Positions 6,801-63,972 of a stretch of DNA of 64,000 bases are shown piece after piece (position 1 is the first letter of the stretch; each line of letters opens with the position of its first letter). The stretch lies in the NCBI GenBank assembly GCA_035299045.1, contig DATGXJ010000031.1, positions 17,410 to 81,409 on the forward strand, given 5' to 3'. The translations under genes were made by a program, and so were the position numbers. The notes beneath the pieces are model-generated. The model was not told the DNA's origin and did no database searches. It saw only the letters and a list, made by a program, of their open reading frames with translations. Origin of the DNA: Flavipsychrobacter sp. (lineage in GTDB: Bacteria; Bacteroidota; Bacteroidia; Chitinophagales; Chitinophagaceae).

Positions 6801-9800
6801 TATATGGTGCTGTACCACCTGTTGCCGATACGGTAGCTGTACCATTATTGCCACCAAAGCAACTGACATTGGTGTGTGCTGTAACAGCAGCATTCAAAAC
6901 AGGCGGTTGTGTAATGGTAATATTTGCAGTATCAGTACAACCAAGCGCATCTGTTACGGTTGCCACAAAACTACCAACGGGCAATGCGGTAGCTATAGCA
7001 GATGTTTGCACCGGAGAGGTATTCCATGAATAAGTATATGGCAATGTGCCACCCGTAGCACTAACAGTTGCTGTACCATTGCTGCCGCCAAAGCAACTGA
7101 TGTTTGTTGCAGCACTAATATTTGCATTCAATACTGCGGGCTGTGCTATCACTACCAATGCAGTATCGTTACAACCACCTGCATCTGTTACTGTTGCAAT
7201 ATATGTACCCGCTGCAAGGCCGCTTGCTGTTGCTGTGGTTTGTACAGGTGCAGTATTCCAGCTATAAGTATATGGAGATGTACCACCTGCCACACTTACC
7301 GTGGCACTACCGTTAGCTTCGCCAAAACATCTTGTATTTGTTTTGCTGCCGATGCCTGCATTCAGCGCATACGGCTGCAATATGACTACGGCTAATGTGT
7401 CTTTACACCCTGCACTGTCTGTAGCAACGGCTATATAGTTGCCTGCGGCAAGTGCTGTTGCAGATGCACTTGTTTGTGCAGGTGTGGTGTTCCACCAATA
7501 TGTATAGGGCGATGTGCCGCCTGTAGCCGCAACAGTAGCTGCACCATTATTTATACCATTACAAGTTGCATCGGTCTTTGAACTCAATACAAGGCTGACT
7601 TTTGTTGGCTGCGATATTGTAACCGTAGCTATAGCCATACAGCCTTTCGCATCTGTTACTGTCACCGTATAAGCACCAGCTGCCAATGCAGTAGCCGTAA
7701 TACCTGTTTGTGCGGGAGACGTATTCCAGCTATAGGTATATGGTGCTGTACCACCTGACACAGAAGCTGTTGCAGTACCGTTATTGCCACCAAAGCAGCT
7801 CACGTTTGTATGCGATGGTATTGCAGCACTCAGCACATTTGGTTGTGTGATGGTAACAAGCGCTGTATCTATACACCCCACTGTATCTGTAACAGTTACT
7901 ATATAGCTGCCCGCACTGAGCGTAGTTGCCGTAGCAGTAGTTTGAACAGGCGATGTAGTCCATGAATATGTATATGGAGACGTACCACCCGACACTGTAG
8001 TAGTTGCGGTACCATTACTACCACCAAAGCAACTGACATTGGTACTGCTGCCAATGCTTGCATTCAATACCGCAGGTTGTGTTATTACTACCAGTGCAGT
8101 ATCGGTACAGCCTTTACTGTCTGTTACCGTTGCAATAAATGTACCCGCTCCCATTGCCACTGTAGCAGTCGTTTTCACAGGTGTGGTATTCCACGAATAA
8201 GTATATGGAGATGTACCGCCTGTGACACTCACTGTAGCGTTACCACTCTGCTCACCAAAACAGCGCACATTGTTACTGCTGCTAATGCTCGCATTCAGTA
8301 CTGCAGGTTGTGTAATGACAACTACTGCTGTATCCGTACAACCTTTGGCATCTGTTACTGTGGCTATGTATGTACCTGCAGCAAGGTTGCTTGCAGCGGC
8401 TGTAGTTTGTACAGGAGATGTATTCCAGCTATAGGTATATGGTGTTGTACCGCCCGTTACATTCAGCGATGCGGTGCCGTTGTTTCCGCCAAAGCAATTC
8501 ACATTGGCAGATGCTGCTATTGACGCGTTCAGCACAGTAGGCTGTGTGATGACAGCCAATGCTGTATCTGTACAACCCAAAGTATCTGTTACCGTCACTA
8601 TGTAGCTACCTGCATTCAAGCCCGATGCGGTGGAAGTAGTTTGTACTGGCGATGTATTCCAACTATAAGTATATGGTGATGTACCACTTGTTGCTGTAAC
8701 AGTAGCGCTACCTGTTGCCGTGCCAAAACAACTGACATTGGTAATGGCTGTAATAGAAGCGTTGAGTTGCGAAGGCTGTGTTATTACTGCCAGAGCCGTA
8801 TCGATACAACCCAGTGTATCTGTTACAGTAACAGTATATGTACCCGCAGGCAGCGATGTAGCTGTGACTGTTGTTTGCACTGTACTGCTGTTCCAGCTAT
8901 AGGTGTAGGGCGATGTACCTCCTGATACACTGACTGTCGCATTACCATTATTGCCACCAAAGCAACTCACATTCGTTTTTGAAGCCAGTGATGCATTCAA
9001 TACGGTTGGCTGTGTAATGGTAACATTTGCCGTATCAATACAACCTTTACTATCTGTAACTGTAACTATGTAACTACCTGCTCCAAGCCCGGTGGCTGTA
9101 GCTGTTGTCTTTACAGGCGTTGTATTCCAACTATAAGTATATGGTGCAGTACCTCCTGATACACTTACCGTTGCGCTACCGTTAGTACCGTTATAACAAC
9201 TCACATTTACCCTGCTTGCGATGGAAGCATTCAGCAAAGTGGGCTGTGTTATTACCGAAGTATCTCTTACCACACAACCTGCATTATCCGTCATGGTAAG
9301 TATATAAGTACCTGCAGATAATCCGTTGATGGCTGCTGTAGTCCTTACGGGAGATGTATTCCAGCTATACGTATATGGCGTAAAGCCACCCGATGGTGTA
9401 GCCGTAAGTGTACCGTTAGCACCACCAAAACAAGACACATGCTGCCTGGCAACTACTACCTGCGGATTGCTGACGGTTAAGACAACAGTATCGTTTTTCG
9501 TACAGCCGTTTGCATCAGTTGCCGTAACATAATATGTGGTTGTTGTAAGTGGTGTAGCAACTGGATTGGCACAAGTAGAACAACTGAGCGCAGTTGTCGG
9601 TGTCCAGTTGTATGTAATAGGCGTGGCACTTGCAGTAGCATTTGCATTCAGTTGTATGCTGCTACCCCTGCATATAGTAGTATCTCTTGTAGCGTTTACT
9701 GCCAGATTATTAATGGTAACCTTGGTATATAATGTATCAGGACAACCGAAGCCGGTATAAGGTGTAAGAATGACTGCGTATGTTTTGGTTGTAGTAGGCC

Positions 9801-10590
9801 TTGCTATTGTAACAGACTGTCCCGTGCCTACTGTAGACCAGGTTGAAGAATCTCTCCAGACATACGAATTGAAACCCGGAGGGGCGCTCAGCGAAACAGT
9901 AGATGAAGTATCGCAAGCATTATAAGATATCTGGAACAAGCCGCAGTTAAGATCTACATAACCATAACCAAAGTGTGCTCCCTGCGCACAGTCTCCACTC
10001 GCAAAGTCTACGGCAACGGTACGCCCGGCATAACCCGAAAGATTGATACTGGCAGTAGACCAAGATTTGTATAGAGCACCATTGTTGATGGATGAAACTG
10101 TAAAACCTGGCAAACTAGATGTGGCTATATAATTAAACTGACTACAATTAATGATTGCATTTGTTATTGAGTCATAAGCTTTTACCTCAAAACGTGGTTG
10201 ATCTGCTGCTACGTGGCCGGGGTCTTCAAACACAACCGCATATCTGAATATCAGGCTGTAATTATTTATACCAGATGGTATGCGAATAAAATACCTGGCT
10301 CTTTCTGCTTGTGCACCTGTGTTGCTGTTACCCAACTTCAATGAGTAATTGCCACCACCGGGCGCAACAATAGGAAACCCTCCGTAAGGGTCTGTGGCTG
10401 TACCACTTGTGATAGTATGCCTGCCTGAAGAAGTACCTGATGTAGGTGTATTGATAGGACAACAAGTACCACGGAATAATTGCCAGTTGGTAAAATTGCC
10501 AAGTTCAAAATCTACGTTCGAGGGGCATGTTTGGGCGTAGGTAAATGAAAAAACAAATAGAAATCCTGCTATAAGTAACGCACGAATCAT
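3808..10590 (-). CDS. Giant SprB-repeat cell-surface adhesin with type-B T9SS (gliding-motility-associated, CHU_C-like) C-terminal sorting domain
   Basis: 2260-aa ORF. Layout: signal peptide (MIRALLIAGFLFVFSFTYAQ), ~210-aa N-terminal domain, Cys-bracketed Ig-like modules (C..C.NP.A.P...T.Y.V...D.NGC), and 20 tandem SprB-type repeats (VSCFGG.NG.ATV...GGT.PYTYSWNT.P.QT....GL.AG.Y.VTVTD..GC.DTA). The C terminus, LPNTFTPNGDGANDMFWP...VFNRWGERVFE...GWDGTFKGKALTPDVFVYIIE, is characteristic of type-B T9SS CTDs. Confidence 0.9.
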   Translation of the reverse strand: MIRALLIAGFLFVFSFTYAQTCPSNVDFELGNFTNWQLFRGTCCPINTPTSGTSSGRHTITSGTATDPYGGFPIVAPGGGNYSLKLGNSNTGAQAERARYFIRIPSGINNYSLIFRYAVVFEDPGHVAADQPRFEVKAYDSITNAIINCSQFNYIATSSLPGFTVSSINNGALYKSWSTASINLSGYAGRTVAVDFASGDCAQGAHFGYGYVDLNCGLFQISYNACDTSSTVSLSAPPGFNSYVWRDSSTWSTVGTGQSVTIARPTTTKTYAVILTPYTGFGCPDTLYTKVTINNLAVNATRDTTICRGSSIQLNANATASATPITYNWTPTTALSCSTCANPVATPLTTTTYYVTATDANGCTKNDTVVLTVSNPQVVVARQHVSCFGGANGTLTATPSGGFTPYTYSWNTSPVRTTAAINGLSAGTYILTMTDNAGCVVRDTSVITQPTLLNASIASRVNVSCYNGTNGSATVSVSGGTAPYTYSWNTTPVKTTATATGLGAGSYIVTVTDSKGCIDTANVTITQPTVLNASLASKTNVSCFGGNNGNATVSVSGGTSPYTYSWNSSTVQTTVTATSLPAGTYTVTVTDTLGCIDTALAVITQPSQLNASITAITNVSCFGTATGSATVTATSGTSPYTYSWNTSPVQTTSTASGLNAGSYIVTVTDTLGCTDTALAVITQPTVLNASIAASANVNCFGGNNGTASLNVTGGTTPYTYSWNTSPVQTTAAASNLAAGTYIATVTDAKGCTDTAVVVITQPAVLNASISSSNNVRCFGEQSGNATVSVTGGTSPYTYSWNTTPVKTTATVAMGAGTFIATVTDSKGCTDTALVVITQPAVLNASIGSSTNVSCFGGSNGTATTTVSGGTSPYTYSWTTSPVQTTATATTLSAGSYIVTVTDTVGCIDTALVTITQPNVLSAAIPSHTNVSCFGGNNGTATASVSGGTAPYTYSWNTSPAQTGITATALAAGAYTVTVTDAKGCMAIATVTISQPTKVSLVLSSKTDATCNGINNGAATVAATGGTSPYTYWWNTTPAQTSASATALAAGNYIAVATDSAGCKDTLAVVILQPYALNAGIGSKTNTRCFGEANGSATVSVAGGTSPYTYSWNTAPVQTTATASGLAAGTYIATVTDAGGCNDTALVVIAQPAVLNANISAATNISCFGGSNGTATVSATGGTLPYTYSWNTSPVQTSAIATALPVGSFVATVTDALGCTDTANITITQPPVLNAAVTAHTNVSCFGGNNGTATVSATGGTAPYTYVWNTSPAQTTATAIGLSAGTYTVVVTDAKGCTSTTSVAITQPTQLNLSLVSKTNASCNGINNGTATIAATGGTSPYTYWWNTTPAQTSTTATSLASGGYMAVVTDSAGCTDTLAVVISQPGALNANIGSVTNVSCNGGANGAASVVITGGTTPYTYIWNTNPVQTGATATSLAAGTYTATVTDAMGCSDTAVAVIQQPAVLTASISAYANATCFGGNNGSAAVNATGGNLPYTYSWNTSPVKTTQSVTGLSAGTYQVTVTDAKGCSAIATVNISHPAQLNASISSKINVSCNGLSNGAATVATTGGTTPYTYTWNTMPAQATPTATALPAGIYIATVTDANGCSDTAVVSISQPALLNAGITQKQDVSCHGYTNGSATVAASGGTLPYAYSWNASPVQSNAVATSLPAGAYIATVTDANGCTDTAMVTINQPTALNATITSKTDVACFNGNNGQATATATGGTSPYTYSWNTAPIQSSATANTLRAGAYVVTVTDNKGCTDTAQLSISQPAQLIASIAGKTDALCNGNSDGTATGSATGGASPYTYSWNTSPVQTTPSATAIAAGFYTLTITDQNGCTATDTVSITEPIKIKVTVEPLDKTCVGTSSGSAVIKATSGGVAPYTYLWNTTPAFTTTLATGLAGGTYSVRVTDATGCSVNENVTVLNFPQLQLGTLPDTEVCPGSKVQLIATGAKTYNWFAETTLSCLNCADPVASPVVNTRYYVVGVDTNNCRDTAGTMVSIIPKRKMDVGADLEICEGDQAQLHADGGKEYTWFPVQSLNDNKSSAPVATPAQTTRYMAIIKQNECYTDTLYQNVTVRAKPFVDLGPDLDGVVGASFKLNAKTSNVNKIEWLPPTGLSCVDCYNPVAIVDKSIVYKVVVYNGEQCKATDDIAINVKCDESIISLPNTFTPNGDGANDMFWPISKGGIIVDKMLVFNRWGERVFEAYNIPVNDPSKGWDGTFKGKALTPDVFVYIIETRCITGERIVIKGDISLIR
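4801..9465 (-). repeat. Array of 20 in-frame tandem repeats of ~234 bp (77-79 aa) encoding SprB repeats
   Basis: The first conserved Cys of each unit falls at aa 387, 465, 542, 621, 699, 777, 854, 932, 1010, 1088, 1166, 1244, 1322, 1400, 1478, 1556, 1634, 1712, 1790 and 1867 (hand count). Each unit carries a PYTY.WN motif. Confidence 0.85.
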
Positions 10591-10769
10591 AACAAATACA
10601 TTGTGATTGTTAACTCACTAATTAGCTGGGGAACAGTAAACATATATAATTATCCACAAACAATCAACAAAATGTGTATTTACGCTTCAGATTTTTTTAA
10701 AATTTAATATTGAAAATACTGGATACGATATCTATCTTTACTTACGATTTTACCCCAGCTACTATTGAA

Positions 10770-11495
10770 ATGAAAAAAATACTATGTGTAACTGCAGCTA
10801 TAATAATAGGTTATAGCAATAAGTCCTTTTCCCAACAGGTTGTATACGAAGACGAAGCCATAACAGAAATAAGCAATTGGCTACCTGCGGGACAATATGA
10901 TTTTCAGGTACTTGAAAAAGATGTACCAACCGATTTAAAGGAAATCATCAAAAAATACCAGAAATCACTTACAGACAATCGTGTTTGGTTTCAGAGCTAT
11001 AAAGAGCAGCATGCTACAGCTACCATACTACCCTACCACAAAAACTTTGGCATCTCTGCCGCAGAGTACGAGCGCTTCAACAAAGAATATCCAAAACTGA
11101 AAACCAAAGTAAAAACGACGAAAACACTGACGCTGGAAAACAATGGCGATAAAATAACTTTCAAGGGTTCAGACGGATTTAACTTTTTTGACGGCATCAG
11201 CTTTGACAAGAAGAAAAACAAAATGCTGGTTGATACGCTGGTAAGTAAATATAAAGGACAGATAAGCGAAGGCGACTCTTCTTCTTTCGGTGCATACAGC
11301 GGCTACAAGTGGCAATATGAAAAAGGCAATTACGAAGCGGTGAAGGCGTTGAAAAGCCCTGACTACATCACCATAGAGTTGACAATCAGCAAGACTAGTA
11401 ATAAAATGCTGATGATACTGAAAGTATTATCGATAGAAAATCTGATTACCAAAATAAACAGTACCGTTTCAGGATACATTGCTCCCAAACAATAA
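10770..11495 (+). CDS. Hypothetical secreted protein
   Basis: ORF 10710 (TTG)..11495 trimmed to the ATG at 10770 (MKKILCVTAAIIIGYSNKSFSQQ, a signal peptide). Lys-rich, with no recognisable domain. Confidence 0.55.
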   Translation: MKKILCVTAAIIIGYSNKSFSQQVVYEDEAITEISNWLPAGQYDFQVLEKDVPTDLKEIIKKYQKSLTDNRVWFQSYKEQHATATILPYHKNFGISAAEYERFNKEYPKLKTKVKTTKTLTLENNGDKITFKGSDGFNFFDGISFDKKKNKMLVDTLVSKYKGQISEGDSSSFGAYSGYKWQYEKGNYEAVKALKSPDYITIELTISKTSNKMLMILKVLSIENLITKINSTVSGYIAPKQ

Positions 11496-11511
11496 TAGCA
11501 AAGTGTATACG

Positions 11512-12018
11512 CTACTGTTGTGTGAGTGTAAAGATGATGTTGGTAGTATAAACACCTGACTGGTGGCCAAAGGGTGGCTTTACCAACATATCGAGCGTAT
11601 AGCTGTTTTCAAGACTGCTGTTTGTACTCCTTATCAAAGGACGAGCAGACGTGCTAACCGTCACAAACTGATCGCTTGCAGACTCTTTAAAAGAAAACAT
11701 GCTGACAGGCATTGTGCGGCTTGATGTTGCCGATGATGGGCTTGCATACTGCCCCTCTGTCATTATATTAACTATCCACGGACGAGAACTCTTTACATTC
11801 AGACTTGCGATATCATAAGCTACTTTACCATTTTCATAATCTTCAATCCTGTTCAGGACGACTTGTTTATGATGATCAGTAACATCAATACGCATAAGAG
11901 ATGGCATGTTTACAGAACCATTTACAGATGCGCTGTTGCCTATACCATAGGCATTACCGTTTGACTGTGCTGCTGCGGAGAGGGGTAATAATGATAATAT
12001 AAATAGTATTCGTTTCAC
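11512..12018 (-). CDS. Secreted pilin-like beta-sandwich protein, paralogue family member (candidate minor fibre subunit)
   Basis: 168 aa with a GTG start overlapping the upstream stop (GTGA) and a signal peptide MKRILFILSLLPLSAAAQ. It shares IEDYENGK, LNVKSSRPWIV and the C-terminal PFGHQSGVYTTNIIFTLTQQ with 14114..14695, 12015..12488 and 63406..63972. Confidence 0.6.
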   Translation of the reverse strand: MKRILFILSLLPLSAAAQSNGNAYGIGNSASVNGSVNMPSLMRIDVTDHHKQVVLNRIEDYENGKVAYDIASLNVKSSRPWIVNIMTEGQYASPSSATSSRTMPVSMFSFKESASDQFVTVSTSARPLIRSTNSSLENSYTLDMLVKPPFGHQSGVYTTNIIFTLTQQ

Positions 12019-12488
12019 GGCCTTGTCATTGTAAAAACAATAGAAAAATTGAACTGTCCCGACGGCACGAAGTTAGTAAAAGGATATAACACCACATCAT
12101 AATAGAAATTAAAATGTTGTGAATGTTGTACTGCCGGTTGTGTAAACAGCAATGCCTGTGCCTGAGAAAGCACAACATCCGTGCGACTTATATTGGCGTT
12201 GTACGAATCGTAATTCTGAAGCCTGAGTGCCAGTTTATTATTAAAAGTGTTGTAAAATGAATTGTTTTCAGATACCATGCTTGCAAAAACATTCCAGTTG
12301 TACTCCTTTACTTTCAGCTTCAACTCCAGTGCATTAGTCAATACTTTCTGCTGCTGTAACTCTTCTATATTATTATAGGAAAACTGAATGGGCCTGTTTG
12401 CCTGAACTGATATCTTGTTATTACCGTTTCCCTGAGCTAAAATTTGTAAAGGGCTCGTTAATAACAAAAATATTATTATTCTGTACAT
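12015..12488 (-). CDS. Secreted pilin-like protein, divergent paralogue (candidate minor fibre subunit)
   Basis: ORF trimmed to MYRIIIFLLLTSPLQILAQ (ATG at 12488). Motifs IEELQQQKV, LKVKEYNWNVF and C-terminal PSGQFNFSIVFTMTRP line up with the family motifs. Translationally coupled to 11512..12018. Confidence 0.55.
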   Translation of the reverse strand: MYRIIIFLLLTSPLQILAQGNGNNKISVQANRPIQFSYNNIEELQQQKVLTNALELKLKVKEYNWNVFASMVSENNSFYNTFNNKLALRLQNYDSYNANISRTDVVLSQAQALLFTQPAVQHSQHFNFYYDVVLYPFTNFVPSGQFNFSIVFTMTRP

Positions 12489-12509
12489 AGTAGTATTAGG
12501 GGCTTTTCC

Positions 12510-12517
12510 TATATTTG
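12510..12517 (+). promoter_or_regulatory. -7 promoter box TATATTTG for the chaperone-like gene
   Basis: Exact TAnnTTTG match, 40 nt upstream of the ATG at 12557, in the 68-bp divergent intergenic region. Confidence 0.4.
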
Positions 12518-12556
12518 GCGTGTTTTTTATATTATACCCCAATAATACTCCATTTT

Positions 12557-13438
12557 ATGAAACGAGCGCTAATATTCATCCCGCTTTACTTATCATTAAC
12601 ATGCAGCTATGCACAACAGCTTGACAGCACGCAGGTTAAGCAACTGAGCGAAAATGCACGTGCCAAAAACAACAATAAAAAGAAAGGTGTGGCAATACTG
12701 CCTGCAACGCTTTACTTCACTGCAGACAGAGGGCAAACGCAGACACTCAATATCAACTTTGACAATACGCTGGACAGCCCTGTACAGTTCAAAGTATCAC
12801 TCACAGACTTTATAAGAGACGAAAACTCGAACGTTACCTACATGGAACCGGGTAAACACCCGCGTTCTTGCGCCACATGGCTGAAGTTGTCTAACAACTT
12901 TATTGAAATCCCCGGCAATACTATAGGCACACTGCCTGTTACAATACAGGTACCTGACTCTGAAGCTGCAATATCTGAAATGAAATGGGCCATGATATTT
13001 CTGGAAGGTATGAAGGAAAAAGTAGCCAATCAGAAATCGGGTAATATAGATGCATCAGTAGAAAAATCGTATCGTGTAGGTGTACAGGTGTACCAAACAC
13101 CACCTACTGTATTGAGCAAAGATTTGAAAATGACATCATTCACTCCGATGCTGGAACGCGGACAATATCGCGTAACATGCAAAAACCAGGGCAGTGTATT
13201 ATTAAGGTGTATATCTTATATAGAACTGCTGTCTAAAGAAAGCGGAGAGAAAATAACTGTGTATCCGGGCAAAGAAGGGAAGGATCCGTTTAAAATACTT
13301 CCCGATCAGGTACGAAATATTGATTTCATTATTCCAGACACTGTACCGAAGGGCAAATACACAGCTGTTGCCATGATAGATGCCAATGATGATGAAGTGC
13401 CGCTTGAAGCTGCGCAGTTGGAAATAGAATTGAAATAA
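12557..13438 (+). CDS. Secreted two-domain beta-sandwich protein, candidate periplasmic pilus chaperone-like component
   Basis: ORF trimmed to MKRALIFIPLYLSLTCSYAQ (ATG at 12557). The first half, ILPATLYFTADRGQTQTLNINFDNTLDSPVQFKVSL...WLKLSNNFIEIPGNTIGTLPVTIQVP, has the P..l.f...gq.q.l.i.N....p..f.v pattern of Ig-like chaperone/surface domains. The second half, YRVTCKNQGSVLLRC...KGKYTAVAMIDAN, looks like a second beta-sandwich. The function is inference only. Confidence 0.6.
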   Translation: MKRALIFIPLYLSLTCSYAQQLDSTQVKQLSENARAKNNNKKKGVAILPATLYFTADRGQTQTLNINFDNTLDSPVQFKVSLTDFIRDENSNVTYMEPGKHPRSCATWLKLSNNFIEIPGNTIGTLPVTIQVPDSEAAISEMKWAMIFLEGMKEKVANQKSGNIDASVEKSYRVGVQVYQTPPTVLSKDLKMTSFTPMLERGQYRVTCKNQGSVLLRCISYIELLSKESGEKITVYPGKEGKDPFKILPDQVRNIDFIIPDTVPKGKYTAVAMIDANDDEVPLEAAQLEIELK

Positions 13439-13480
13439 GCTCTACTACTCTACTTAAAGAATTCATAATCAACATTATAA

Positions 13481-13506
13481 GGTCGGCAAATGCCGGCCTT
13501 TTTTAT
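13481..13506 (+). terminator. Rho-independent terminator after the chaperone-like gene
   Basis: GGTCGGC-AAAT-GCCGGCC hairpin (one G-U pair) followed by TTTTTTAT. Confidence 0.55.
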
Positions 13507-14113
13507 TGCCCCGATACTAATTCTACGAGTTTCAGGAGGGCAAGAGATAGTAATTCTACAGGCCAAAAGCAATGTGGGCGCTACTTTCGCAGTGTATTAC
13601 ACACCCTAATTCGGGCAATTTTCATCATATTATTATTTACATTCTTTGTTTCAAAATTGTGGATTCACTGTTAGTTCATGTGGATAACCCTGCTCTATTT
13701 AAGCGTTTCAAGAATTGACCTATATCAATAAGTCACAATAAATTCATTACAAACAACTGTCTACAAGCACTTTAAAAGCTTTTGGTGGCAAAAACAGGCA
13801 TTCATATAATATTTCGCCTACATACAACTGTTTCATTTAGCAGGTAAACAGCAATAAAACAACATAAAAACGTAAAATATAAAATATGAAAATAGTAAAT
13901 GAAACCAACAACGTTTTGCTGAAACCCTTTATAGTAAAGCAGTACAAGGCAATAATATATTCGCAACACGATGTTGCAGAATAGATGTAAAACTGCTTTT
14001 GTCCATGATACATTGTTTTGTGTTAAAAATGTTAATAAAGGAGTTTACATCCGCCTCTGTTTTGATAGAGATTTGCATTACAAACTTTTTCAAACCATTT
14101 AAAACGAAAAACA

Positions 14114-14695
14114 ATGAAAAAAATCGTTCTGACAGCAGCAGTAGCAATCGCTGCATTCGCTGCAAAAGCACAAACAACAGCAGTAAGCACTTTGAACACA
14201 AGCGCTATCCTGAATGAAGTAATCGTTCTGACTCCATCTTCTCAGAATGGTGCACCTGGTACTAACCTGCCTTTCGTAGGTTTCATCAGCAACACTTTCA
14301 ACACAATCGCAGAGTATGACAATGGTCTGGATCTGGTTGAAAATCCACAAGTTCTGCCTACAGGTGCTGGTGAATTCGAATTCACTATCGCTTCTAGCGT
14401 AGGTTACAACGTAGTTGCTACTAGCCCTGCAAACTTCACTTGGAGCGGTGGTGCTTCTCAAACTTACCCAATGGCTGCTAGCGCATTGAAACTGACTGTA
14501 GTAGGTGCTCCTTCTGGCGCAACTAGCGTACTGCCAGCTAACACTGCTCTGAACAGCGCAGGTACTACACTGTTCGCTCATCCAATGGGCCACACTACTG
14601 CTAACTGGGGTATGAATGTACACCTGACTCCAGGTTACGGTCACCAAGGCGGTACTTACACTCTGCCTGTAACTATCACTGCTACTACTATCTAA
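14114..14695 (+). CDS. Secreted pilin-like protein, candidate major fibre subunit (highly expression-biased codons)
   Basis: 193 aa with a signal peptide MKKIVLTAAVAIAAFAAKAQ and no lipobox Cys. Family motifs are IAEYDNGL, FEFTIASSVGYNVVATS and C-terminal GYGHQGGTYTLPVTITATTI. All 9 Ile codons are ATC and all 8 Phe codons are TTC (hand count). GGT/GCT/ACT/CTG dominate, as in metK, mdh and fbaB in this window. Confidence 0.75.
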   Translation: MKKIVLTAAVAIAAFAAKAQTTAVSTLNTSAILNEVIVLTPSSQNGAPGTNLPFVGFISNTFNTIAEYDNGLDLVENPQVLPTGAGEFEFTIASSVGYNVVATSPANFTWSGGASQTYPMAASALKLTVVGAPSGATSVLPANTALNSAGTTLFAHPMGHTTANWGMNVHLTPGYGHQGGTYTLPVTITATTI

Positions 14696-14743
14696 TCTTA
14701 CGCCTGCATAGGCTAAGCATAATAGATGCAGTAAAATGCAATG

Positions 14744-14777
14744 AGCCCTCTCGATATGTAGAGAGGGCTTATTTTAC
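14744..14777 (+). terminator. Rho-independent terminator/attenuator between the major-subunit-like gene and the barrel gene
   Basis: AGCCCTCTC-GATATGTA-GAGAGGGCT hairpin followed by TATTTTA. The next gene starts 64 nt later on the same strand. Confidence 0.6.
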
Positions 14778-14840
14778 CCCCCTTGAGGAAATTTAAGAGA
14801 GGTTATTTATTAATCTCAAACATTAACGCATTCAATCCCC

Positions 14841-17630
14841 ATGAATCGTTACCAACATACAATACCACTATTAAAGCTATGGTGTATACTATTGGTTGCC
14901 ATTTTTGCAACGCGTAGCTATGCCAACCCCGGCAACTATATAGTTAAGGTAAAAATTTTAAAAGACTCACTGATAGCTGCAGAAAATACCAATCTGCTGG
15001 CTAACAAAGTCACCATAGCAAATAATACCAAAAAGGTACGCAGAATAGCTGTACGTACCATTGTACCATTCGGTTGGAAGAACATCTCCAGAAATAAGTA
15101 CATTGATGGTGATGATGAGTATTACAACATATCTCCCGGTGAGGAGATAAGTGTACCCGTTAATTTATTGAAACTGCCCACAGCCAAATCTGAATGGACA
15201 GAAGTGAAGTTCAAAATCTGGTATCGTGAACTAGCAAGTGACACGCAGGAAGCTGCATACAGTATACGTACTAAAGAGCGTAAAACATTTGTAACGCAGC
15301 CTAAGAGTGATATTATAGACGTAGACAAGGTAAATACCACCGCAAGCTTCAAGACATACCTGAAAAACACAGGCAACATTGAAGATACTTATGTACTGAA
15401 GTACAAAAACTATGAACTGAATATTGATGACTCTGTAATTATAAAACTACAACCGGGCAAGGACAGTAACTATACACACGAGATAAAACTCAACCACTAT
15501 CAGATTGCCAATGTAAATTCAGAGACCATCACATTCAATGTAACAAACAGCATAGGACAACAGTACAACAACTACTTTCAACTGCAGAAATATGCAGAGG
15601 AAGGCAAATACAACAGATCATCCTACAGCGGCATACCGCTCAGGTTAGAAATGGGAGCTATTTCTTTTGGCGAAAGAACCAGTATATACGGAGCAGCAAG
15701 AGGAAGGATACAGTTCAAAAACGCCAGAAGTTTTGAGTTTACATACAGAAGTAAGCAGTTTGGCAACATGCCTACAGGCTTGCAACAACATATTTTCAAA
15801 CTGCAGTACAACAGTAAAAACCTTACTGTTACCGCAGGGCAGGTAAATCTGCCATTGTTTTTTGTAACAAACCCAATAAGAGGATTGGATGTTACATACA
15901 ACCTGAATGGCGTAGGCATCAGCTTGATAGCTGTAATGAGAGACGGCCAGTCATACTTTCAGAATGATGTATATGCAGCTATACTGAACTATAGCCTGAA
16001 AAAAGCAACTGTAAATAACATGCTGATGTTCAATACAGACCATGGCACAGGCATCAACAGCTACATTTCATCAAACGATGTTGTTTTCATAAATAAGAAA
16101 AATATAACCTTTAACATACTTGCGAGAGCAGGATACGAGGAAAACCCGCGAAATCAGGCCGCTCCGAAACAAATGGGGATATCGGGCGGCTATGGTTTCC
16201 GGGTTTCTAAAAATAAAATCACATTCTCATCTACTGCCAACTACTACGATAAGCGTTTCCCCGGCATCAACAGAGGGTTGATATATCACAACCACGACAT
16301 TACACTATCTACCAAAAAATCGGGAATCGGCCTGTTCTATTCATCAAGCTACATGATGATGAATTTCCTGAGAGACAGCCTTTTCAATTCAGACCTGCTT
16401 TCTTACAACATAGACAGGCTTGGTATCAGGTACAACAAGTTTTCCAAATCGGTTCAAACATCCCTAAGCACAGGTTTGCTGAAGCAAAACGGATTGTCGT
16501 TTATGAACGGCGGACTGAAGACATCTTACTTTTTTGATGTGCTCAGCAGATGGCAAATGGGCAACAAATGGACATCTAACCTGAATATACAAAGTGCATT
16601 CGGAGACGACCCGACACCGGGAAAAGAAGACCTCTTCATCATCACATCTACTGCAGACATTAGCTCTAAATACTTCGGATTCATGATGCTGTATACACGC
16701 ACACCCATTACAGGATACGAAGACGGCAAGCAAACAATACTATCGTATACAGAAACGGTAAACGGCGGGCCAAACGTTAACTTCTACCTTTTCAGAAGCA
16801 GGATGCACGGTACTGTAAGATATAACCTATCTAAAAGCCTGAAAGATAATTTCTTTACCAGTGGTGTAGGCGGAAGCCTCGGATATACAGGACCGAAGAG
16901 TGGCTTCTCTATCAATGCAAGTTGCTTTGTGCCCTTCAGAAGCCAAACAGACGACCCCGGGCTGCCTATCGCCAACAGGAGAACAGCACAGCTTGCCATC
17001 AGCAAACAACTGCATGTGCCTGTGCTCTTCAACAAAAAATATCACACACTGAAGTTGGTTTTGTTTAATGACGTGAACAATAACCAATCTATGGATGCGG
17101 ACGAAATGCCTGTTGAAAATGTGAAGATGACCATCAATAATATGCCCTTTATCAGCAACGGAGATGGCGAAATAAAATATAAAAACGTGGAGAAAGGCGA
17201 CTACCACATACACGTACAAACCAACAATGAAAATCTGGTGCCCATCAACGGCATTAATCAGATAATAACTGTTGACAACAACATCACCTTTACCATGCCA
17301 TTCAAGAAGGGTAAAGAAATAACTGGTACTGTACGCATTATATCAGACACATTCAGCACATCAAAACTTAGCCCCGACCAGATAAAGATAACTGCAGTAG
17401 ACTCTGTGGGTATTCGCTTCAGCACACTTACAGACAAGCAAGGCAATTTTAAGCTGTCTGTACCTGCCGGTGTATATAATGTACGCATCAGCCAGTCATT
17501 TCTTGAAAACTCTGACTACAAAGCACAACAGTCGGGCTTCAAAATAGACTTGATGAACAAAGAAAAAGAGAATGTAGTATTTGTGCTGAAACAAAAAGCA
17601 CGCAAAGTCCGATACCTTGAAAACAAGTAA
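14841..17630 (+). CDS. Large secreted outer-membrane beta-barrel protein with N-terminal Ig-like and C-terminal CarboxypepD_reg-like domains; candidate usher-like pore
   Basis: 929 aa with a signal peptide ...LLVAIFATRSYA. N-terminal ~250 aa has Ig-like patterns (VTIANNTKKVRRIAVRTIVPFGW; FKTYLKNTGNIEDTYVLKY). The middle ~450 aa shows alternating hydrophobic/aromatic strands (FEFTYRSKQFGN, LQYNSKNLTVTAGQ, GLDVTYNLNGVGISLIAV, ITFNILARAGYE, GGYGFRVSKNKITFSSTANYY). The C terminus has two prealbumin/CarboxypepD_reg-like segments (GDGEIKYKNVEKGDYHIHV; GTVRIISD...TDKQGNFKLSVPAGVYNVRIS). The usher role is inference. Confidence 0.7.
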   Translation: MNRYQHTIPLLKLWCILLVAIFATRSYANPGNYIVKVKILKDSLIAAENTNLLANKVTIANNTKKVRRIAVRTIVPFGWKNISRNKYIDGDDEYYNISPGEEISVPVNLLKLPTAKSEWTEVKFKIWYRELASDTQEAAYSIRTKERKTFVTQPKSDIIDVDKVNTTASFKTYLKNTGNIEDTYVLKYKNYELNIDDSVIIKLQPGKDSNYTHEIKLNHYQIANVNSETITFNVTNSIGQQYNNYFQLQKYAEEGKYNRSSYSGIPLRLEMGAISFGERTSIYGAARGRIQFKNARSFEFTYRSKQFGNMPTGLQQHIFKLQYNSKNLTVTAGQVNLPLFFVTNPIRGLDVTYNLNGVGISLIAVMRDGQSYFQNDVYAAILNYSLKKATVNNMLMFNTDHGTGINSYISSNDVVFINKKNITFNILARAGYEENPRNQAAPKQMGISGGYGFRVSKNKITFSSTANYYDKRFPGINRGLIYHNHDITLSTKKSGIGLFYSSSYMMMNFLRDSLFNSDLLSYNIDRLGIRYNKFSKSVQTSLSTGLLKQNGLSFMNGGLKTSYFFDVLSRWQMGNKWTSNLNIQSAFGDDPTPGKEDLFIITSTADISSKYFGFMMLYTRTPITGYEDGKQTILSYTETVNGGPNVNFYLFRSRMHGTVRYNLSKSLKDNFFTSGVGGSLGYTGPKSGFSINASCFVPFRSQTDDPGLPIANRRTAQLAISKQLHVPVLFNKKYHTLKLVLFNDVNNNQSMDADEMPVENVKMTINNMPFISNGDGEIKYKNVEKGDYHIHVQTNNENLVPINGINQIITVDNNITFTMPFKKGKEITGTVRIISDTFSTSKLSPDQIKITAVDSVGIRFSTLTDKQGNFKLSVPAGVYNVRISQSFLENSDYKAQQSGFKIDLMNKEKENVVFVLKQKARKVRYLENK

Positions 17631-17649
17631 TCTTCTAAAACAAAAGAGT

Positions 17650-18030
17650 ATGAAAAACCTGCTATTCATTATCATACTGCTATGTGTAGCCATCAGTGGC
17701 TATGCACAAGACTACACCTACTGCAAAGTGATGTATATATACACAGGCAGCGACTTTTTTGCAGTAGACCATAGCGAAACAAAGGAACAGACAGGCAATA
17801 TCTCAATAAGAAAGGAGCATATTATCATAGATGGCAAGCGATACAAGATTAATAAGCAGTTAAAAGAAAATACCTATCGTGCCAAGGGCAGGATAGTCGA
17901 ATACATATATAACTCAAACAAAATGACTGCATTGCACGTGCGCAGGCAAAACACAGATGTATACTATACGCTGAATGGACAGGGCAATAACAATATGTTA
18001 ACCCAAAATACCCAATCTGCGGTATACTAG
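17650..18030 (+). CDS. Hypothetical small secreted protein, last gene of the cluster
   Basis: ORF trimmed to MKNLLFIIILLCVAISGYAQ (ATG at 17650), 19 nt after the stop of the barrel gene. No family recognised. Confidence 0.5.
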   Translation: MKNLLFIIILLCVAISGYAQDYTYCKVMYIYTGSDFFAVDHSETKEQTGNISIRKEHIIIDGKRYKINKQLKENTYRAKGRIVEYIYNSNKMTALHVRRQNTDVYYTLNGQGNNNMLTQNTQSAVY

Positions 18031-18148
18031 TTTCAGCATTCAATGACTATATTTGATGTAACATAATGAGCGATATGAGATGATAATCATATAAACAGCT
18101 ATCACGAGATTTTACCCCATTTTTTATTTTAACGAAAGACACTCTATT

Positions 18149-18523
18149 ATGTTAACGACTATCACTGACTTCCTGCATCAGCGGGTCTATGGTAAGCAGT
18201 ACCAAGACTTGTTTGAGCAGATCAGTAACACCATCACAGGTGAGTACATAGAAGACATGTACTCATACATTGAAAAAAACGGCACCCCTCCATCATTCGA
18301 GGAGATTATGCACAAGGTAAAAGCACTAAGTACAGAGCTGACCATGCGTGCAGAGTGGATACGAGAGAACTACAAAGAAGGGAAAGGTTATCGGTCCATC
18401 AAATTGACCACCGGGTGTAAACGAATCATTAAAAAGGCTGTAGAAGAGTACATGCGACAGGCAAAAAGCGTTCACGCTATCAAGTCGCAAAGAGATGTCA
18501 TGTTGTTAGAAATGGCTATCTGA
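18149..18523 (+). CDS. Hypothetical cytoplasmic protein
   Basis: 124-aa ORF with no signal peptide or TM segment, helical and charged, followed by its own terminator. Confidence 0.5.
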   Translation: MLTTITDFLHQRVYGKQYQDLFEQISNTITGEYIEDMYSYIEKNGTPPSFEEIMHKVKALSTELTMRAEWIRENYKEGKGYRSIKLTTGCKRIIKKAVEEYMRQAKSVHAIKSQRDVMLLEMAI

Positions 18524-18536
18524 ACCTTCTTATACG

Positions 18537-18571
18537 ACAGAGAGCCGTATAAGTACGGCTCTCTGTATTTT
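18537..18571 (+). terminator. Rho-independent terminator
   Basis: 13-bp perfect stem ACAGAGAGCCGTA-TAAG-TACGGCTCTCTGT followed by ATTTT. Confidence 0.65.
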
Positions 18572-18794
18572 CAATTGTTTGTTTGATATGAAAATATCGT
18601 AAACAATGAAAAAAAATCATTCTGGTTGCAAATATACAAAATATTCGCAACAGGTAAAGTATTGCCCTTACCAATACTTAACCTAATGCTAAAACACATG
18701 TAACACCTGAAACACAGCCCAATCCTAATTTCAATGAAATAAAAAACTGAAAAACAAAAAATAATCTACGCTAATTTTTAAAAGACATCCCCAA

Positions 18795-19400
18795 ATGAGA
18801 ACAGGCTATGATGCTAGAGCATCTGTAATAAACGAAGGAACACAAGAAATACAACGTCTTGTGCTGAAGATTACCCAACTGGCGGGCATACGCGGCGAAG
18901 AGTTTATCAAAACCTTCCCTTTTATGCACGACGGGCGCAACTTCAGAATACTGAACAATATCTGCGAAGAGTTGCCACCATACAAAAGAAACTCTTTTCT
19001 GGGTATCAGCTTCAGCTCCTATCACTATATCAACTACATCAAATTCTACAGTACCTACAAATCTTTCCCGCTGAATAAAGGCGATGAAATAATCCTGACT
19101 TTTGAAAACAAGGAATCACTTCGCTTCAGTTTTACATCTCCCGGCAAGAGCATGGGCTACCTGACAACCAATGCCTGTGCCATTGGCGAAATGGAGCTTG
19201 CATACATTGCAGAAAACAGGCTGGCATACTGGAAGCTTTACAACCATGAAAAACAACAATCTGTGATTGGCGGTTTTACCAGACAAGAGTTTAACAAACA
19301 GTACATTTCTGAAAAAAGCGGCAAAGAACTTTTTAAGAAAATGGCTGAAGAAATACTCACATCAAGGCAATTGCTGTTCAACCATAGCAACGCTATATAA
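18795..19400 (+). CDS. Hypothetical cytoplasmic protein
   Basis: 201-aa ORF with no signal peptide and no recognised motif, followed by its own terminator. Confidence 0.5.
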   Translation: MRTGYDARASVINEGTQEIQRLVLKITQLAGIRGEEFIKTFPFMHDGRNFRILNNICEELPPYKRNSFLGISFSSYHYINYIKFYSTYKSFPLNKGDEIILTFENKESLRFSFTSPGKSMGYLTTNACAIGEMELAYIAENRLAYWKLYNHEKQQSVIGGFTRQEFNKQYISEKSGKELFKKMAEEILTSRQLLFNHSNAI

Positions 19401-19435
19401 CACTGCTCACTCTCTCTATATATAACAACCCAACG

Positions 19436-19464
19436 AGAGCCCTTTAGAGGGCTCTTATTTTTTT
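19436..19464 (+). terminator. Rho-independent terminator
   Basis: AGAGCCC-TTTAGA-GGGCTCT hairpin followed by TATTTTTTT. Confidence 0.6.
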
Positions 19465-19542
19465 GTATAACGTCGCGCTTTGTTACAAAATAACAATACC
19501 GCCTGTTTATGCGGTTTTCATCGCTTACCTTTACCGCCTGAT

Positions 19543-63405: not shown

Positions 63406-63972
63406 TTACATCTGTGTAGCTGTAAACACAACATCAGTAGTATATGTACCGGGTGCTGCAAGTATCCCGGGCGTTGCTTTGTACTTTACGGTAAACGTCT
63501 GGTTGCCACCCGGATTACAATATGTAAGCAGTGTTGTGCCACCGCCTATTGTAAGGCCCAGCCAACCTAGCAGCGCCTGCAATGTAGGTATACCACCCGT
63601 GTTATTAGCCGTTACCATTACCTGCAAGCCTGTGCTTACGGGGATGATGTTATTAACTGTATATGTACCTGTGTAGGTAAAATTTGTAGAAGAGCTGGCC
63701 ACTGCTACTTTAAATTTTTTGTTGGAGCGTACGCGCAAATCCTGCGTCACGCTTTCCTTACCATTTATAAGTTCTGTAGCGTTGTTGTATGTAAAATTGA
63801 GTGTACCACCCGCACCATTGATGAATGATAGTTCGATGGCATCAGAAAGATCGAGCTTGGCAGTTTGTACCGCTGTCCTACTTGCATTTTGTGCGTTGGC
63901 AGAAAATGCTGCTACCATACCCAAAATAAATATAGCTATTGCTTTAAGAAGCGTGTTTGTCTGTTTGTTCAT
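63406..63972 (-). CDS. Secreted pilin-like protein, fourth paralogue of the 11.5-14.7 kb family
   Basis: 188 aa with a signal peptide ...GMVAAFSANAQ. TELINGK, LRVRSNKKFKVAVASSSTNFTYTG and C-terminal APGTYTTDVVFTATQM align with the motifs of 14114..14695 and 11512..12018. Ordinary codon usage. Confidence 0.6.
   Translation of the reverse strand: MNKQTNTLLKAIAIFILGMVAAFSANAQNASRTAVQTAKLDLSDAIELSFINGAGGTLNFTYNNATELINGKESVTQDLRVRSNKKFKVAVASSSTNFTYTGTYTVNNIIPVSTGLQVMVTANNTGGIPTLQALLGWLGLTIGGGTTLLTYCNPGGNQTFTVKYKATPGILAAPGTYTTDVVFTATQM

Follow-up and report, generated by a model that had tools for sequence, protein, structure and literature searches.

A 64,000-nucleotide stretch of a Flavipsychrobacter sp. 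genome (assembly GCA_035299045.1, contig DATGXJ010000031.1, forward-strand positions 17,410 to 81,409), referred to here as the window, contains at positions 11512-18030 a group of genes for secreted proteins that we take, with a probability of roughly 0.7, to encode a TLP-1-type pilus formed by donor-strand exchange, along with the machinery that assembles it. That this is a locus for a TLP-1-type donor-strand pilus is the firmer part of the proposal and is very likely; it is probable, with rather less assurance, that the 293-amino-acid (aa) and 929-aa proteins are specifically its chaperone and its usher. The genes had previously been read, from the nucleotide sequence alone, as a chaperone-usher-like fibre locus built from a pilin-like family without a name and belonging neither to the type V pili nor to the type IX secretion system (T9SS), and this core of the sequence-only reading stands. 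The locus resembles a chaperone-usher system, yet its sequences place it in no described class; what would be new is a donor-strand pilus whose putative periplasmic chaperone and outer-membrane pore come from families not previously recognized as such. The genes for the pilin-like subunits and for the two candidate assembly proteins are the following.

11512..12018, minus strand: pilin-like subunit of 168 aa (168-type) with an N-terminal extension; candidate minor or adaptor subunit (family profile)
12015..12488, minus strand: pilin-like subunit of 157 aa counted from the ATG (157-type), without the donor-strand segment; candidate distal tip or cap
12557..13438, plus strand: protein of 293 aa with two immunoglobulin (Ig)-like domains, a WxLIP homologue; candidate periplasmic chaperone (hhalign, Pfam)
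14114..14695, plus strand: pilin-like subunit of 193 aa (193-type) with an N-terminal extension, just 5′ of the barrel gene; candidate major subunit (family profile)
14841..17630, plus strand: outer-membrane protein of 929 aa; candidate usher-like secretion and assembly pore (AlphaFold2, Foldseek)
63406..63972, minus strand: orphan paralogue of the pilin family, 188 aa; possible alternative major subunit (family profile)

All of the open reading frames (ORFs) on which the sequence-only reading was built are present, and it had missed the minus-strand orientation of the 168-aa and 157-aa genes, which are divergent from the 293-aa gene; the upstream side of the 188-aa gene extends beyond the edge of the window. 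Signal peptides had been claimed for all of the products, and each product does start with a basic residue followed by a hydrophobic stretch, with cleavage expected at a small residue and Q (AQ, for example), as judged by reading the sequences directly, without a predictor. The lack of a lipobox cysteine also holds, with no cysteine conserved in the signal-peptide cleavage region of the locus proteins (orthologues of the 293-aa protein do not have the one in its LTCSYAQ sequence), and so does the lack of a T9SS C-terminal domain, there being no Pfam match to Por_Secre_tail or CHU_C among them. Pfam and NCBIfam scans of all locus proteins gave nothing over the cut-offs and no match to Fimbrial, SCPU, DUF4402, PapD_N/C or Usher; weak matches to Unstab_antitox, HV_small_capsid and similar families were set aside as noise. 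At the protein level the locus is approximately 99 % identical to that of the Chitinophagales metagenome-assembled genome (MAG) UWPOB_CHIT7, and related loci come from Flavipsychrobacter. All homologues for which a source annotation was retrieved are annotated as 'hypothetical protein', and the four window proteins that were looked up carried no name.

The pilin-like subunits and their relation to TLP-1 fibrils

The four small proteins had been proposed to be paralogues, and profile-profile comparison of their orthologue groups with hhalign shows that they are. Pairwise BLAST similarities among them are weak, except that the 188-aa and 193-aa proteins are 28 % identical over their full length. 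The 168-type group matches the 157-type group with an hhalign probability of 95.9 % (E-value 5e-9) and the 193-type group with one of 93.9 %, and the 193-type group matches the 188-aa protein at 91 %. Each window-type group also matches the pilins of related Cytophagales loci, at 81-99 % (97.7 % for the 193-type group and 97.8 % for the 188-aa protein). The three motifs picked out earlier in the small proteins correspond to conserved columns of a whole-length alignment of 19 sequences from the window and related loci, and a family hidden Markov model (HMM) finds the four small proteins as its sole matches among the 155 window ORFs of at least 70 aa. When scanned singly against Pfam at E-values up to 1, the four window pilins and the 19 family members give no Fimbrial or SCPU-type match, and neither do the TLP-1-like pilins described below; the small proteins likewise do not match the Pfam WxL family (PF13731). 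The 168-aa protein has a weak match, far below the cut-off, to the NCBIfam family CPR_Pam_pilin_C (E-value 0.022).

When all PDB sequences were searched with the 19-protein profile, only two significant matches were found, 9ikk_A (E-value 5e-7) and 9ikj_A (E-value 4e-6), and all three motifs align. These entries of 16 chains each are named TLP-2 and TLP-1 respectively in the PDB file, and on the basis of protomer size and entry names we identify them with TLP-1b and TLP-1a, the fibrils described in the CryoSeek study. The latter are 8-nm tubular fibrils that were seen by electron cryomicroscopy (cryo-EM) in material taken straight from filtered pond water, and the cryo-EM structures show that they polymerize by donor-strand exchange (PMC11494351). 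Neither metagenomics nor mass spectrometry identified their source, for which the authors suggest 'uncharacterized bacterial pili'; the predicted structures most similar to them belong to unannotated proteins, headed by one from a Flavobacteriales bacterium (PMC11494351). Donor-strand exchange has been demonstrated for these homologues, and by homology the window subunits would be expected to use it too.

The match extends to the pilins of TLP-1 loci recovered from metagenomes (see below), to which an alignment of the window-type pilins is related at 98.2 % (E-value 5e-14) from the second strand to the C-terminus. Taken group by group, the values are 94 % for the 168-type (E-value 1.4e-7), 84 % for the 188-aa protein, 68.5 % for the 193-type and 26 % for the 157-type by direct comparison; the 157-type is linked to the TLP-1 family by way of the 168-type group. 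The window subunits share with the TLP-1 fibrils the motifs E-Y-x-x-G and L-x-V-x-S-x-x-x-W, the C-terminal G-x-Y-x-x-x-(I/V)-x-F strand, and an N-terminal strand at the position of the TLP-1 β1 donor strand. They differ in that the mature subunits are approximately 140-170 aa rather than approximately 236 aa long, most of the TLP-1 head insert being absent, and in that there are three or four subunits in the window and two in TLP-1. The TLP-1 tubules are 8 nm wide and four-start with the donor at n+4, an arrangement that the predicted window fibre may share.

The spacing between the signal peptide and motif 1 (E-(Y/L)-x-x-G) is 29-46 residues in every family member that is not of the 157-type, and these N-terminal extensions hold an alternating-hydrophobic segment that aligns with the TLP-1 donor strand. 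In the 168-aa protein the spacing is 39 residues, including an alternating SASVNGSVNM aligned to that strand, and the extension of the 188-aa protein is 38 residues long. The 157-type proteins lack the donor-strand-aligned stretch of 14-20 residues, and their spacing is 19-21 residues in all five orthologues of the 19-sequence alignment. A subunit of this kind could accept a strand but not donate one, which fits a position at the distal tip, and we regard the 157-type protein as a candidate tip or cap; it is encoded by one copy per locus, and in related loci the 168-type gene is always paired with it. A single-domain pilin without a linker strand, PamT, is the proposed tip of the Pam pili of the candidate phyla radiation (CPR) (bioRxiv 10.64898/2026.03.03.709456). 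The 193-type gene sits where the TLP-1-like major pilin gene sits in TLP-1 loci, and the 188-aa orphan is possibly an alternative shaft (major) subunit.

Gene content of TLP-1 loci and other related loci

TLP-1 loci were obtained by scanning JGI metagenomes with the conserved N-terminal peptide of TLP-1 alone, a query that holds nothing from the 293-aa or 929-aa families, and 35 loci were found. Among their contigs of at least 4 kb with a close TLP-1-like pilin, seven out of seven (L022, L032, L044, L045, L047, L048 and L050) carry two pilin genes and then a homologue of the 929-aa gene. The TLP-1-like pilin is 252-267 aa long in these contigs and the second, more divergent pilin is 217-253 aa long, while the barrel proteins of 1147-1201 aa match positions 5-905 of the 929-aa profile with E-values of 6e-48 to 3e-77 (the TLP-1-like pilin and the barrel protein of L050 are both cut at the contig end). 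In L022, L045 and L047, and also in the 3-kb contig L024, which stops before any barrel gene, the upstream DNA codes for a product of 305-325 aa (truncated by the contig end in L024), and this product and the 293-aa family match from end to end with E-values of 1e-40 to 1e-44. Homologues of both of the window's larger proteins are thus encoded at TLP-1 loci.

The barrel proteins of the TLP-1 loci (L022 11565-15122, and those of L032, L044, L045, L047 and L048) differ from the window protein by an extra C-terminal tail of approximately 150-200 aa, made up of a K/D/G-rich low-complexity linker and then a small domain. The tail may be a peptidoglycan tether. A distant match of 1229 aa, P0007, carries a SPOR (PF05036) domain.

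Freshwater metagenomes hold gene sequences that are 76-100 % identical to the TLP-1-like N-terminal fragment. The partial sequence of TLP-1b used as a query finds one frameshifted metagenomic gene, 76 % identical. We note that the closest metagenomic match to the deposited TLP-1 N-terminus (L021 82-877) is a frameshifted copy, with ORFs of 98 aa and 182 aa, of a pilin that is intact in L022; the frameshift probably reflects a mistake in the assembly of this short Logan contig. In the searchable library we found no paper that links TLP-1 to an operon or describes the present pathway. If the assignment is right, the TLP-1 fibrils gain a genetic address, with gene sequences, a conserved operon and a candidate chaperone and pore, and their biogenesis becomes open to experiment.

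Conservation of the gene neighbourhood had been put forward as a check on the sequence-only reading, and the pilin, two-Ig and barrel genes do cluster, in rearranged orders, in the Chitinophagales, the Cytophagales and the TLP-1 loci. In the window they are confined to 6.5 kb; there, as in L001-L006 and L013, two pilin genes on the minus strand are followed by the two-Ig gene, a pilin gene and the barrel gene on the plus strand. All of the genes are on the same strand in L009, L010, L016 and L017. The Cytophagales loci L019, L020 and L062 have two or four pilin genes, the barrel gene, and then two pilin genes on the minus strand and the two-Ig gene on the plus strand; the order in TLP-1 loci is two-Ig gene, two pilin genes, barrel gene. 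The L019/L020 barrel protein belongs to a cluster that includes Lacihabitans and Leadbetterella sequences, and Lacihabitans sp. CS3-21 is a cultured carrier of the system, so that an organism in culture exists for it. A genome scan with the 293-aa family alignment found six close loci only.

The 293-aa protein

The 293-aa protein was analysed with a family of twenty homologues (37-100 % identity). The Pfam family WxLIP_PGBD (DUF916) is matched by 19 of the 20 members, with a best E-value of 1.2e-7, and the best match of the family in the PDB is EfmWxLIP1 (9i25/9i1y). When the family was compared by hhalign with four WxLIPs, from WxL clusters on plasmids of Enterococcus, Lactococcus, Lactiplantibacillus and Bacillus, the probability was 97 % (E-value 1e-10) over 213 columns that span both Ig-like domains. 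This homology to a two-Ig protein supports the earlier proposal that the 293-aa protein has two domains, but the PapD-like partner that had been envisaged gives way to a WxLIP-like one, none of the 20 members having a PapD_N or PapD_C match. Some members have weak Pfam matches to the Ig-like families fn3_5, Cep192_D6, Motile_Sperm and ASH, and the C-terminal half of the family has no Pfam match, DUF3324 included.

The family has no C-terminal transmembrane helix and ends in a conserved ...PLEAAQLEIELK without a hydrophobic tail; having lost the transmembrane helix of the WxLIPs, the protein would be soluble in the periplasm. Its extreme C-terminus (residues ~278-293), DDEVPLEAAQLEIELK, is the most conserved segment of the family. 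A second conserved segment, a hairpin ending in SYRVGVQVYQTPP, is present at residues ~150-183 at the end of domain 1, where the G1 donor strand and YRP motif of PapD lie, although the two are aligned only in a non-significant hhalign comparison. To judge from conservation, either the SYRVGVQVYQTPP hairpin or the DDEVPLEAAQLEIELK C-terminus could be the strand that is offered to subunits.

We propose a chaperone-like role for this protein mainly because the strand insertion attributed to WxLIPs is donor-strand complementation in all but name: an AlphaFold2 prediction has a hairpin strand of WxLIP filling a gap in the β-sandwich of its WxL partner (PMC10599100). By this analogy the 293-aa protein is a candidate periplasmic chaperone.

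There are hints of a relationship between the WxL domains themselves and TLP-1-type pilins. When pilin groups were compared with six small WxL proteins, the Cytophagales group gave 75 % (E-value 2.4e-5) with both WxL motifs in register and falling on motifs 2 and 3 of the pilin family, and the other groups gave less than 17 %. Since no alignment is obtained with those other groups, shared ancestry of WxL domains and pilins is kept as a hypothesis. In comparisons of the L019 pilins with the small WxL proteins of L063-L066 (75-78 %), K-x-W-x-V-x-V lies opposite the first G-W-x-L motif and the C-terminal Y-T-x-x-(I/V)-T-(F/Y)-T-V aligns with the second WxL motif.

The 929-aa outer-membrane protein

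An AlphaFold2 model of the 929-aa protein built with 106 diverse homologues has a predicted local distance difference test (pLDDT) score of 89.6 and a predicted template modelling (pTM) score of 0.72; a model from seven close sequences only (pLDDT 43) was set aside. By DSSP assignment the former consists of a signal peptide, two N-terminal β-sandwich domains (~36-145 and 150-250), a run of long antiparallel strands, about 26 in number, between 262 and 732, and two C-terminal β-sandwich domains (~735-835 and 849-918), and this predicted arrangement agrees with the N-terminal sandwiches, central barrel and two C-terminal domains that had been deduced from the translation. The last two domains give weak Pfam CarboxypepD_reg and SdrD_B signals, and when the 929-aa profile was searched against PDB sequences only an SdrD B-like C-terminal domain was matched.

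When the model was searched against the PDB with Foldseek, nine of the eleven top-ranked entries were the ushers FimD and PapC (E-values 4.7e-13 to 4e-10, probability 1.0, 766-818 columns), headed by FimD 3rfz_B (E-value 4.7e-13), 9fy9_D and PapC 7lhh_C. TonB-dependent transporters trail by six orders of magnitude (E-value 6e-7). The 929-aa family has no Pfam match to Usher (PF00577), PapC_N or PapC_C. As modelled, then, the protein has its domains in the order seen in ushers and falls outside the Usher family by sequence.

The family is a large one. An exhaustive profile search found 841 cluster representatives (clusters at 50 % identity) with E-values of 1e-3 or less and 153 with E-values of 1e-30 or less, most of them full length at approximately 900-950 aa, whereas a word-indexed search found only six relatives. 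The EukProt transcriptome assemblies for two protists, Pigoraptor vietnamica and Colpodella angusta, contain copies that are identical or nearly so, presumably from bacteria present as contaminants or prey; their presence in transcriptome assemblies suggests that the gene is transcribed.

Proposed assembly pathway and the points against it

We propose that the pilin-like subunits (157, 168 and 193 aa, and the orphan of 188 aa) would be exported by Sec and capped in the periplasm by the 293-aa WxLIP-like protein, which would insert a strand into their incomplete β-sandwich. They would then be delivered to the N-terminal domains of the 929-aa barrel protein, where the N-terminal strand of the incoming subunit would displace the chaperone strand as the subunit joined the base of the fibre, and the fibre would be extruded through the barrel while the C-terminal domains held it. 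Having no donor strand, the 157-aa subunit would enter first and cap the distal end, followed by the 168-aa adaptor and then by the 193-aa shaft subunit.

A number of observations weigh against this proposal. An HMM built from the TLP-1-locus pilins alone scores the window proteins weakly (E-values of 8e-5 to 1.9 among the 155 ORFs), and the link to TLP-1 is therefore claimed at the level of the family profile only. The genes are not adjacent everywhere: a 293-like gene is missing from the upstream DNA of L032 and L044, and in L007 and L008 one pilin gene is paired with the two-Ig gene and no barrel is encoded within 8 kb. With respect to the assembly proteins, hhalign comparison of the 293-aa family with five E. 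coli PapD-type chaperones gives 1.7 % and that of the 929-aa family with five E. coli ushers gives 0.5 %; in both cases the aligned region is topologically sensible but not significant. The TM-scores to ushers are low (0.22-0.34), and the likeness could in part reflect no more than the combination of a big barrel with Ig-like domains. The sequence-only reading had looked to a barrel of about 24 strands with a plug; in the model there are about 26 strands and no inserted plug, the longest gaps between strands being approximately 16 residues (505-522 and 698-715), compared with the plug insert of approximately 85 residues in FimD. The incomplete fold and strand complementation of the window proteins are predicted from homology, and a single pore does not obviously explain the four-start, n+4 donor geometry of TLP-1.

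Alternative explanations and comparison with known systems

Several of these points are also what would be expected if the donor-strand polymer is real but is assembled without a chaperone, as TasA and the archaeal cannulae are, the 293-aa protein being a surface anchor or matrix-binding partner and the 929-aa protein an outer-membrane base or an unrelated porin. The literature reads WxLIP as a wall- or host-binding partner rather than as a chaperone, neither large protein can be tied to PapD or Usher by sequence, a plug is missing from the barrel, some loci have no 293-like or barrel gene nearby, and chaperone-free donor-strand polymers are reported to exist (PMC12518558). Nevertheless, the folded subunits of a diderm must cross the outer membrane and the 929-aa family is the sole conserved outer-membrane protein of the gene set, its gene being the last of the pilin operon in TLP-1 loci; the barrel's best fold matches are ushers by six orders of magnitude over TonB-dependent transporters, and the loss of the transmembrane helix would leave the 293-aa protein soluble in the periplasm. 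We consider self-assembly of this kind unlikely. A little less likely again is a Gram-negative counterpart of the WxL clusters that makes no fibres at all, in which the WxLIP-like partner would hold monomeric surface proteins non-covalently and the barrel would export or anchor them. The WxL clusters comprise small and large WxL proteins, a WxLIP made of DUF916, DUF3324 and a transmembrane helix, and a small LPXTG protein. The two systems have features in common, with a partner homologous to WxLIP (97 %) encoded beside several small β-sandwich proteins; the Cytophagales pilin subgroup, alone among the groups compared, aligns to WxL domains at 75 % with two motifs in register, and WxL proteins have been described as surface proteins and not as pili. 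They differ in that the 293-aa protein has neither the transmembrane helix nor a Pfam DUF3324 match, in that the window locus encodes no LPXTG protein but does encode a large outer-membrane barrel protein, and in that the host is a diderm and the WxL clusters are those of Bacillota. The closest solved relatives of the small proteins are filaments held together by donor-strand exchange, most subunits keep the alternating N-terminal extension aligned to the TLP-1 donor strand, and several paralogous subunits of which one has no extension is the pattern of a pilus operon.

That the locus is an ordinary archaic chaperone-usher operon (sigma/Csu, SCPU) which has diverged beyond easy recognition seems to us very improbable. 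The parts list and domain order of the FimC/FimD, PapD/PapC and Csu/CupE systems are matched, by several Sec-exported subunits, one of which has no donor strand as tip subunits do, by a soluble two-Ig partner, and by an outer-membrane protein of about 900 aa with periplasmic N-terminal domain(s), a large barrel and two C-terminal β-sandwich domains in that order; ushers are also the top Foldseek matches. However, no component has sequence or profile similarity to its counterpart, no member of the three families giving a Pfam match to Fimbrial, SCPU, DUF4402, PapD_N/C or Usher even with 19-20 members scanned singly, and the low hhalign values given above were obtained with E. coli chaperone and usher references that include no Csu proteins. 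The partner is clearly a WxLIP (DUF916) homologue and not a PapD, and the barrel, with about 26 strands and no plug, has two N-terminal domains rather than one and C-terminal domains that are prealbumin/SdrD-B-like. Of the Csu/SCPU likeness seen in the sequence-only reading, the parts list and the domain order are thus retained and membership of Csu, SCPU or DUF4402 by sequence is not; the C-terminal G-x-Y strand may, as that reading proposed, resemble that of SCPU subunits. An assignment of the 929-aa protein to nutrient uptake (SusC/TonB-like), or to T9SS as a PorP/SprF-like partner of a neighbouring SprB/CHU_C giant, with the small proteins as accessory surface binders, is less probable still. 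It would account for the CarboxypepD_reg-like domains, which occur in SusC-type proteins, and for the T9SS-type proteins that adjoin the locus in the window and in several related loci, but its domains run in the opposite order to those of SusC, it has neither a plug nor a TonB-box domain, TonB-dependent transporters rank far behind ushers, CHU_C genes are missing next to the Cytophagales loci, and such cargo is so abundant across the window that adjacency is little informative.

The TLP-1-type pilus with its own assembly machinery thus remains the preferred explanation, and it can be set beside two other classes of strand-exchange fibre. The Pam pili, like the TLP-1 fibrils, were recognized recently by cryo-EM as built by donor-strand exchange, and they also have two-domain chaperone-like proteins and a single-domain tip candidate; the Pam chaperones are membrane-anchored with a PapD-like fold, there is no outer-membrane component, and the Pam pilins are two-domain proteins reported to be exclusive to the CPR (bioRxiv 10.64898/2026.03.03.709456). 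Type V pili (FimA/Mfa) share with the window system the phylum Bacteroidota and fibres formed by strand exchange. Their subunits are lipoprotein precursors that are proteolytically processed and donate a C-terminal strand; those of the window have no lipobox and, by homology with TLP-1, would donate an N-terminal one, and no locus protein matches the FimA/Mfa families of Pfam. If the proposal is correct, this is a third Bacteroidota route beside the type V pili and the T9SS-anchored filaments, with a pore family of at least 153 clusters; passing a polymer of folded subunits across the outer membrane through a barrel that has about 26 strands, an usher-like domain order and no plug would be a novel solution.

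A wider reading, to which we give somewhat less than even odds, is that TLP-1-type pili constitute a separate and widespread Bacteroidota pathway with a soluble WxLIP partner adapted to diderms, pilins that are remote homologues of WxL domains and a plug-less pore of about 26 strands. The gene set would then be the missing biogenesis machinery of TLP-1, and the WxL clusters and the present locus would represent a single ancient system of strand complementation in its monoderm and diderm forms; the barrel could be either an independent invention or an usher that has diverged beyond recognition. The homology to WxLIP suggests in turn that the WxL clusters of Bacillota may also use strand complementation.

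Neighbouring genes and noncoding features

Other genes and features of the region are listed here.

10770..11495, plus strand: secreted protein of 241 aa, accessory in the Chitinophagales clade only (homologues at related loci)
13479..13500, plus strand: terminator-like hairpin and T-run directly 3′ of the 293-aa gene (consensus match only)
14744..14769, plus strand: strong hairpin followed by UAUUUUA, between the 193-aa and 929-aa genes (RNA folding)
17650..18030, plus strand: lineage-specific secreted protein of 126 aa, probably outside the system (BLASTP)
18149..18523, plus strand: cytoplasmic protein of 124 aa, possible regulator (linkage in the Chitinophagales clade)
18795..19400, plus strand: cytoplasmic protein of 201 aa, possible regulator (linkage in the Chitinophagales clade)

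The 126-aa gene had been counted as the sixth gene of the locus, but its only BLASTP homologue is in the near-identical MAG locus L013. With no homologue in the other fetched loci it was rejected as a component of the system and does not belong to the conserved set. It sits in the gap that separates the barrel gene from the conserved 124-aa gene, and the 130-aa gene at this position in L001-L006 is a homologue of the 124-aa protein and not of the 126-aa protein.

The 241-aa, 124-aa and 201-aa proteins may be accessory or regulatory. Homologues of the 241-aa protein (37-45 % identical) adjoin the locus throughout L001-L017, the rearranged L009 and L016 among them, and are absent from the Cytophagales and TLP-1 loci; the protein has no Pfam match. 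Homologues of the 124-aa and 201-aa proteins are encoded on the flanks of the locus in L001-L006 as well as in L009, L010, L016 and L017, where the gene order is rearranged (coordinates include L009 6074-7167, L016 7185-8183 and L008 8896-9480), and in L007 and L008 the 201-aa homologue lies directly 3′ of a 277-aa WxLIP-like gene. These two proteins could be dedicated regulators; the 124-aa protein has only a weak match to LexA_DNA_bind (E-value 0.005).

On the minus strand at 3808-10590 is a gene for a 2260-aa secreted protein with more than 20 near-identical repeats of approximately 75 aa (…SCFGGNNGTATVSVSGGTSPYTYSWNTSP…) and a T9SS-type (CHU_C-like) C-terminal end, whose homologues beside related loci match Pfam SprB and CHU_C. 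T9SS-type proteins (CHU_C/Por_Secre_tail) adjoin the locus in the window, L001-L006, L009, L011, L022 and L045, and not in the Cytophagales. The adjacency of the SprB/CHU_C giants was considered as a sign of a functional link and judged uninformative, since none is present beside the Cytophagales loci and, T9SS cargo genes being abundant throughout the window, adjacency carries little information.

The hairpin 3′ of the 293-aa gene has a 9-bp stem with six GC pairs and is followed by TTTTATTG. The RNA between the 193-aa and 929-aa genes folds with an energy of -43 kcal/mol (z = -4.9 relative to shuffles), and the hairpin within it is possibly a partial terminator that would set the ratio of subunit to pore, by analogy with the fimA and papA operons. 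A scan of positions 10500-19500 against Rfam gave nothing above noise, a scan for sigma-70 promoters did no better than shuffles, and the window shows no enrichment of the Bacteroidota -7 motif TAnnTTTG; one copy of it, at 12510-12517, lies 40 bp 5′ of the 293-aa gene and is a hint of a promoter there at most. The 193-aa gene is preceded by an intergenic region of 676 bp, in which the direct repeat GATA(C/G)TAATTCTAC occurs at 13513-13526 and 13546-13559 with a spacing of 33 bp and may be a binding site for a regulator.

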